Positions 53,316 through 53,874 of a stretch of DNA of 64,000 nucleotides are shown here, in pieces. The stretch comes from Eledone cirrhosa (Eukaryota): positions 16,864,001 to 16,928,000 of the forward strand of contig OZ024744.1 in NCBI GenBank assembly GCA_964016885.1. The letters run 5' to 3'. Each line of letters starts with the position of its first letter. Position 1 is the stretch's first letter. Below the pieces are notes generated by a model. That model saw nothing but the letters and a program-made list of their open reading frames with translations. It made no database searches and was not told the origin of the DNA. The translations under genes and the position numbers were made by a program.

Positions 53316-53874
53316 GAATGGGTATGCATGTAAAATACGGCTACTATGGTTATGTGAGTATCTCTTACCTATCTGCATTTTCTGCCTGTAGAGCTGTTTT
53401 TATGTGCCTGTGTATATGCGTATATTTATTGAGTACTTATTTATTTGTTAGTGTACATATTTGTGTGTATGTATGTATATGTATGTGTATGTATATGTAT
53501 GTGTATGTGTGCACATATGTATGTGTGTGTATATATATATATATATATATATATATATATATATATATATATATATATATATATATATATATATATATAT
53601 ATATATATATATATATATATAAATCAGGAAAGAAGGTTTACATGGTTTGCTATACAAAAAAGTTTTTAATCATAGCAAACCATGTAAACCTTCTTTCCTG
53701 ATTTATTATTACTCAAAGTGTTTACAACATAGGAATTACAGCATACCCGCAGCATCACTATGAAAACGCCTTGTTGAGTCAAACCAAGCCAAGCGTTAAT
53801 ATCATCCACTACCTGGAATACCATAACTGGACTTCACCTAAGTGGACTGCATTTAACTATTATTTGTTAATCCG

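Follow-up and report, generated by a model that had tools for sequence, protein, structure and literature searches.

A head-to-head Penelope-like insertion in Eledone cirrhosa, its turn, and the copy ends of its family around a predicted hammerhead cut

A hairpin in the genome of Eledone cirrhosa had been predicted to arise where an inverted pLTR turns around at a hammerhead cleavage site, a footprint of snap-back priming that would tie self-cleavage directly to the inversions of Penelope-like elements (PLEs). Our analysis of the window (the whole 64,000-nt stretch, positions 16,864,001 to 16,928,000 of contig OZ024744.1, assembly GCA_964016885.1) and of copies elsewhere in the genome demonstrates that the hairpin is real and of a known kind, that the strong claim linking cleavage to inversion fails and that a weak form of it survives. 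Judged from its sequence, the hairpin is the turn of a separate 257-bp Hydra-type Penelope-like insertion (53619-53875) bounded by (TA)n, an ordinary case of an already known architecture. The more than 2,000 arms of the family show that inversion is its usual outcome, independent of the cut. With moderate confidence we favor an insertion by two target-primed cDNAs, begun at 57402 and 57570, whose 3′ ends were joined, with the turn probably at 57348 and not at the cut.

The flagged insertion and its family

The hairpin itself is as originally described: a perfect 35-bp stem (53619-53653 with 53672-53706) encloses an 18-nt loop, 53619-53676 matches the reverse complement of 57342-57402 but for three differences, GCTAT (53649-53653) and ATAGC (53672-53676) are both present, and at the claimed cut GTC (57338-57340) is followed by AGCTATG (57341-57347). 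It is not a chance structure: the window holds three copies of its 17-mer arm motif, and 100 shuffles produced none. As to the differences, two are markers of subfamilies A and B, and the third is a 2-nt gap touching the junction, which vanishes under a parse in which the arm turns at 57348 and 1 nt is shared. What did not hold is the assignment of the hairpin as the inverted 5′ pLTR of the neighboring copy that ends at 57570. In tandem copies of the family the 5′ part of the ORF comes after 57570 with no microsatellite, and the hairpin arms belong to subfamily A whereas the body of the neighbor (54279-57402) is closer to B (96-99% vs 92-98%); the window therefore holds two insertions, and the hairpin is one of its own. 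The tandem copies likewise exclude the microsatellite at 53875-54278 as part of the element. At 53086-53100, ACTTAGCTCCCAC resembles the sequence after the tail in the tandem copies and may mark where a related family ends. Coordinates are collected in Table 1, in which the neighboring copy (54279-57570) serves as the reference for all family arm positions.

Table 1. Features of the two insertions, in window coordinates
Feature	Position	Strand	Detail
(TA)n target, left side	53530..53618	.	pure TA run 53530-53621 overlaps first bases of arm
Inverted no-tail arm, subfamily A	53619..53672	-	57402 back to 57348 (preferred parse)
Inverted arm, original parse	to 53676	-	to 57342, with 2-nt deletion
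18-nt loop between 35-bp stem arms	53654..53671	.	minus-orientation reading
Forward arm, part common to inverted arm	53672..53706	+	57368-57402
168-nt tail, one arm only	53707..53875	+	57403-57570; ends in (TA)n
TA/TG microsatellite separating the two insertions	53875..54278	.	outside element unit
Separate 5′-truncated subfamily B copy	54279..57570	+	broken RT-GIY-YIG frame to 56376
Predicted internal promoter	57226..57259	+	Inr TCATTC 57226-57231 (+1 A 57228), DPE-like GGTTA +28 to +32
Predicted type I hammerhead	57234..57347	+	predicted cut 57340/57341
Intrinsic GCTAT...ATAGC inverted repeat	57342..57372	+	source of fold-back microhomology
Candidate reverse-transcription start 1	57398..57402	+	outer end of no-tail arms; 639 exact matches genome-wide (exact pattern)
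Candidate reverse-transcription start 2	57566..57572	+	outer end of tail arms, CCGTATA

A first look at the 3.0-Gb genome returned 2,607 pLTR candidates. One natural copy (L106) carries a 794-aa ORF in which YRDD and VY..YIG motifs (by eye) mark an RT followed by a C-terminal GIY-YIG domain, together with RWK and DKT motifs (RRVRWKAY, KADKTSN), a CxCx5C linker in the form CNCHLPDRC, and CGLC and CRH for the CxxC and CxH that flank conserved E and N, with no CCHH (by eye). Its protein has 70 homologues at E ≤ 1e-20, mostly of ~700 aa; the window ORF and L106 matched no Pfam family, and a comparison with PDB sequences gave no hit. By these motifs we file the element as a putative Hydra-type PLE. 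The single ORF, RWK/DKT, CxCx5C, the C-terminal GIY-YIG-like domain and (TA)n targets are all shared with the Hydra clade in the available part of PMC8557442, as is an inverted 5′-truncated copy with a tail at one end, a layout known there for PLEs. In contrast, the tail is 168 nt here and 30-40 nt there, most copies here have a non-canonical hammerhead core, and the unit of ~3.7 kb, which holds an N-rich stretch and an internal microsatellite, is above the 'generally under 3 kb' that the same part of the source gives as a tendency; that part contains no map of turn points. Elsewhere in the window a 60-bp satellite covers 3-1422 and 6797 to ~46500 (units match 87% in the first 12 kb, with apparent higher-order repeats of ~5-6.5 kb in the ORF list), and Ty3/Gypsy-like LTR retrotransposon ORFs with gag, protease, RT, RNase H and integrase motifs (by eye) lie inside this array at 2232-6037 (-).

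Insertions of the family follow one order: (TA)n, an inverted arm from 57402, the turn, a forward arm to 57570, and (TA)n again, in which target duplications are unreadable. Our unselected sample consists of 90 of the first 100 listed no-tail ends, all on contig C1, reduced to 86 by dropping four duplicates of the same event. Of these independent arms 61 have an inverted partner, 16 have none and nine ran off the fetched DNA; setting aside six with ends in a microsatellite or long gaps leaves 55 clean pairs. In 42 of them it is the no-tail arm that extends further upstream, in 12 it is the tail arm and in one both extend equally far, and in 17 the arms do not overlap at all, so a single self-copying cDNA cannot explain most pairs. 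Both arms belong to the same subfamily in 65 of 66 typed pairs, as compared to ~36% at random (the 66 come from 78 two-armed stretches, selected loci included), and therefore both derive from one source element. Near-symmetric turns, ≤35 nt apart, are found in 12 of the 55 pairs vs 2.65 in shuffles, with 0 of 20,000 shuffles reaching 12, which makes fold-back or coupled synthesis plausible in a subset. One junction occurs five times (L098-L102, G000:C1 211.9-213.0 Mb), duplicated together with its flanks after insertion. The head-to-head arms starting at 57402 and 57570 fit a model of two target-primed cDNAs.

Copy ends at the predicted start and the predicted cut

Mapping the turns against the cut was the check that the original prediction had named, and it largely gave the scatter that had been named as contrary to it. 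Turns spread over ~3 kb and none of 77 unselected arm ends lies at 57339-57342; because of this scatter inversion cannot in general be put down to self-cleavage, and the proposed direct tie between the two falls. Nine of the 77 ends do lie at 57222-57247, which drew our attention to an Inr and a DPE-like match there. By the Inr/DPE consensus, transcription is predicted to start at 57228; this is the only Inr plus DPE match within the element, and it is intact in 118 of 130 copies. The start census was carried out after the Inr had been spotted (45 matches, 44 distinct, three of them noise and ten at 57232 outside the test), and 16 of the 31 ends in its 15-nt window fall at 57227-57228 (p 4e-7), with few ends upstream; without microsatellite joins the fraction is 13 of 27. 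Ends are also frequent at 57234 (19 of 80, by eye) and 57232 (15 of 80, by eye), pile-ups that sit 4-6 nt inside the predicted start. The first is partly explained by a GCATGC palindrome, with perfect folds at nine loci. The simplest reading of the 57227-57228 peak would be run-off at the transcript 5′ end, and this peak is clearer than the excess at the predicted cut.

The claimed GUC/AGCTATG cut stands in so far as a hammerhead-like motif (stem I GCATGCT/AGCTATG, core CCGAAGA with U4C, long stem II) does predict cleavage at 57340/57341, but its core is non-canonical and Rfam at gathering thresholds returned no match. The GAAA and GUC/GUA parts of the core are present, the 3′ side reading GAAAC-AATT-GTC in subfamilies B and C and GAAAC-AAAT-GTA in A. 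Among 198 motif matches, a few of them spurious or partial, the cores are 177 CCGAAGA, 12 CCGATGA, five CTGAAGA, three CTGATGA and one CCGAGGA, that is, 190 with U4C, outside the canonical CUGANGA, and eight with CTGA; the three canonical CTGATGA rows come from two loci. Stem I has 3-4 bp with a bulged extension, at its base stem II has U-A in B, U.U in A and A.A in C, and the stems appear in the fold of 57228-57352 and disappear once 3′ sequence is added. The fold z-score of the region, 0.24, is no better than shuffles. The predicted ribozyme resembles the minimal PLE hammerheads in the available part of PMC4209133 in lying in the pLTR, in its short palindromic stem III (CAATTG in B and C, CAAATG in A), in its long stem II (8 bp with a bulge) and in the unpaired, variable base after A9 of the core; such hammerheads cut poorly in vitro and, in that part of the source, are without in vivo evidence. 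U4C reduces hammerhead activity (PMC3088659). Further hammerhead-like motifs with different stems, by pattern match only, lie at 49118 (+), 63608 (-) and 63919 (+) and probably come from other PLE families.

Within the inverted repeat, paired changes at 57344 and 57370 turn GCTAT/ATAGC into GCAAT/ATTGC in 19 of the 75 copies with A at 57344. This stem competes with hammerhead stem I and could be a switch, or the pair may go back to a single lineage event. As proof of a selected stem we rejected this covariation: the counts (19 A/T, 56 A/A, 187 T/A, one T/T) probably reflect one lineage event.

Ends at the cut were collected with whole-genome patterns that list arms exiting family sequence in set windows and that detect ~45-85% of ends (an estimate from base composition), unequally across positions; ends were called by script, with point-change and small-indel rows removed, seven further rows dropped and five reassigned by hand. 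In the 13-nt window 57342-57330 this gave 58 ends (53 loci), of which 13 (nine loci) lie at 57341 (p 0.0004 by arm, 0.021 by locus), an excess amounting to ~1% of the 2,197 arms covering the site. The 13 include three perfect AGCT palindromes, without whose loci 6 of 51 loci remain (p 0.20), as well as the two arms of L163 described below and short jump-back duplications (L156, L157, L355 and L367). Restricted to the two uniform wide windows, the count is 8 of 42 (p 0.31, by eye). Among ends known within 1 nt, 57341 continues to rank first (7 of 34, p 0.013; 6 of 33 loci, p 0.038). At L040, L151 and L365 near-symmetric turns allow an end at 57341, and at L163 both arms end exactly there, bridged by a 72-bp foreign hairpin (L163:1522-1593, G000:C15 ~30591900-30591970) that is absent from the element references and resembles extra-template capture followed by fold-back.

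It is possible, though we hold it with less than even confidence, that the hammerhead never cuts templates and that the 57341 excess stems from AGCT self-complementarity, the GCTAT/ATAGC repeat and RT pausing at the 3′ edge of a structured region. The prevalence of U4C and its lowered activity, the mismatched stem II base in A and C, the missing Rfam match and the low z-score are all in keeping with this, and so is the palindrome-free subfamily C, which has 3 of 26 ends at 57341 (p 0.79) and peaks at CAATTG 57335-57332 instead (by-eye counts). The Poseidon hammerhead is moreover dispensable in vitro, with no RNA reads starting at the cut in the available part of PMC11167929. However, other palindromes yield fewer perfect folds (AGATCT none, by eye; ACAATTGT one) than AGCT with three, and self-complementarity also sits poorly with the rank of 57341 at 1-nt precision, with the jump-back duplications at the cut and with the loci that retain a canonical core. 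Judged on these ends, a real cleavage footprint at 57341 is about evenly balanced. The start of the template RNA is likely preserved in a minority of copy ends.

The turn and the mechanism of insertion

Compared with subfamily A (~36% of the 2,197 arms, first 100 rows by eye), the junction of the flagged copy can be parsed with an end at 57342 and 5 nt of microhomology or with an end at 57348 and 1 nt shared. The first parse requires a CA deletion found in one of 79 copies, the flagged copy itself, and in no other read-through copy among the 82 matches of a pattern able to list it. The second lands at 57368/57369 and requires no change, and the copy at L033 has the same landing, 57368, with a different turn. 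Since the 57342 parse needs a deletion unique to this copy we prefer 57348, and the flagged copy probably turns there, 7 nt from the predicted cut.

Run-off of the RT at the cut followed by fold-back, as originally proposed, thus keeps part of its ground: for a cDNA ending at the cut, the minimum-energy fold pairs the 3′ ATAGC with GCTAT, an independent locus (L032) has exactly the predicted junction with no indel, and there is the excess at 57341. It does less well for the copy on which it was built, which more likely turns at 57348, although the 54-nt cDNA of that parse has an unpaired 3′ end, a point in favor of the original parse for this copy. In an amended version, the 57402-primed cDNA would have run off the cut end, lost its terminal base, folded back via ATAGC/GCTAT, copied itself and switched to a second cDNA for the tail, with CA lost from the loop then or later. 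The predicted fold, which forms for a cDNA ending at 57342 or 57341, the junction at L032, the 57341-compatible turns at L040, L151, L365 and L163, and the snap-back of R2 after full-length cDNA synthesis documented in the available part of PMC11371274 lend this version some appeal, but we regard it as unlikely: the 2-nt deletion is absent from all other copies listed while a 57348 turn needs none, the 5-nt microhomology is compatible with every end in 57342-57347 but with one at 57341 only after a base has been trimmed off, and the rough likelihood is more than tenfold for 57348 unless the deletion is tied to fold-back. Snap-back of a single cDNA does not account for this insertion at all, because its forward arm continues for 168 nt past the point where the inverted arm starts, and a second cDNA is needed.

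The same comparison of arms bears on the idea that the inverted arm arose by self-primed copying of a single strand, either cDNA or antisense template, the 57402 end being made later by endonuclease resolution. Palindromes at the inverted junctions of PLEs had led to a proposal of self-priming (PMC3846280, available part), the tail has been attributed to endonuclease resolution (PMC8557442, available part), and concordant subfamilies and the 12 near-symmetric pairs would be expected of it, yet the no-tail arm holds sequence missing from the tail arm in 42 of the 55 pairs and in the flagged copy, and in 17 pairs the arms do not overlap. We consider this explanation improbable as a whole, although 57402 could be a resolution site instead of a priming site. 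A fold-back artefact of the assembly or library as the source of the hairpin is very improbable indeed, for although it sits in a microsatellite and no contig from four sequencing runs spans it (uninformative for a repeat), both outer ends are exact family boundaries, the loop is asymmetric, and similar short hairpins, sampled through short patterns, occur at 11 other loci with different junctions.

For the insertion by two cDNAs that we prefer, we infer an order of cutting, twin priming and microhomology joining. The endonuclease would cut both (TA)n strands, and each cut end would prime reverse transcription on RNA of the same source element, at 57402 and at 57570. One cDNA end may then prime on the other cDNA, or fold back and switch, using 0-8 nt of microhomology, so that turns would form wherever the cDNA had stopped. 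For a minority of cDNAs the stop would likely be run-off at a genuine RNA 5′ end; the signal for this is clear at 57227-57228 and weaker at 57341. Independent twin priming is insufficient, because the near-symmetric excess requires fold-back or coupled synthesis. In L1 twin priming, a single target supplies two primers, and the outcome is a 5′ inversion with a microhomology join. Here, in contrast, the second site does not vary (57402), and the overlap between arms, often hundreds of bases long, requires two template copies or template reuse.

Relation to other elements and meaning for the family

The closest biochemical counterpart is the Poseidon PAc element, for which the available part of PMC11167929 describes target-primed reverse transcription in vitro with two internal RT start sites that define the tail and with both target strands cut and extended. 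An AT-rich target is shared with our family, as are, putatively, two starts, the cutting and extension of both target strands and a hammerhead in the pLTR. The Poseidon start site is non-homologous to the target whereas both candidate starts here resemble TA repeats, and its RNA reads are without a trace of cleavage whereas the genomic ends here have a small excess at the predicted cut. R2, in the available parts of PMC11371274 and PMC11331408, also self-primes from the cDNA 3′ end, often after full-length synthesis, and copies extra templates, as L163 may have done. It has one priming site, however, and snap-back is a minor class there, while inversion is the main form here, with element 3′ boundaries at the ends of both arms. 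Nor can the first cDNA have supplied the template for all of the second arm, as it does in R2: the flagged copy carries 168 nt extra, and 42 of the 55 clean pairs have the same polarity. Penelope elements of Adineta share head-to-head pLTRs, palindromic junctions and asparagine-rich ORF stretches (PMC3846280, available part), those of the window lying at ~55400-55940, and Drosophila Penelope shares an internal Inr/DPE promoter in the pLTR (PMC2377424, available part). Neither of these available texts connects turns or copy ends with either a ribozyme cut or a transcription start, and the accessible part of bioRxiv 10.64898/2026.07.22.740005 does not treat turn-to-cut mapping. A search of the open literature, main texts only, turned up no study that maps PLE turns onto a hammerhead cut or a start site, and no genomic evidence of hammerhead cutting of PLEs in the germline was found in the open literature.

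The window contains a second head-to-head repeat family, at 57693-57956 (-) and 59356-59619 (+), with arms 98.5% alike and a further copy at 63651-63796; each arm has a canonical CTGATGA...GAAA minimal hammerhead motif and (TA)n ends, and 57693-59619 is a good further family for an end census, which is repeatable on any high-copy PLE family without bench work. For the family described here we advance tentatively, a little short of even confidence, the idea that the copy ends form a fossil map of RNA 5′ ends, recording a capped Inr/DPE start as well as germline hammerhead cleavage, with cut RNAs serving as templates and their cDNAs folding back or pairing via AGCT to give inverted pLTRs. The family names the exact bases concerned: 57228 for the capped start, 57341 for the 5′-OH end, and 57402 and 57570 for priming. 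If true, this fossil end map would be genomic evidence of germline PLE hammerhead cutting, and the family thereby bears on two standing questions, the origin of the inverted pLTRs of PLEs and hammerhead cutting in vivo.
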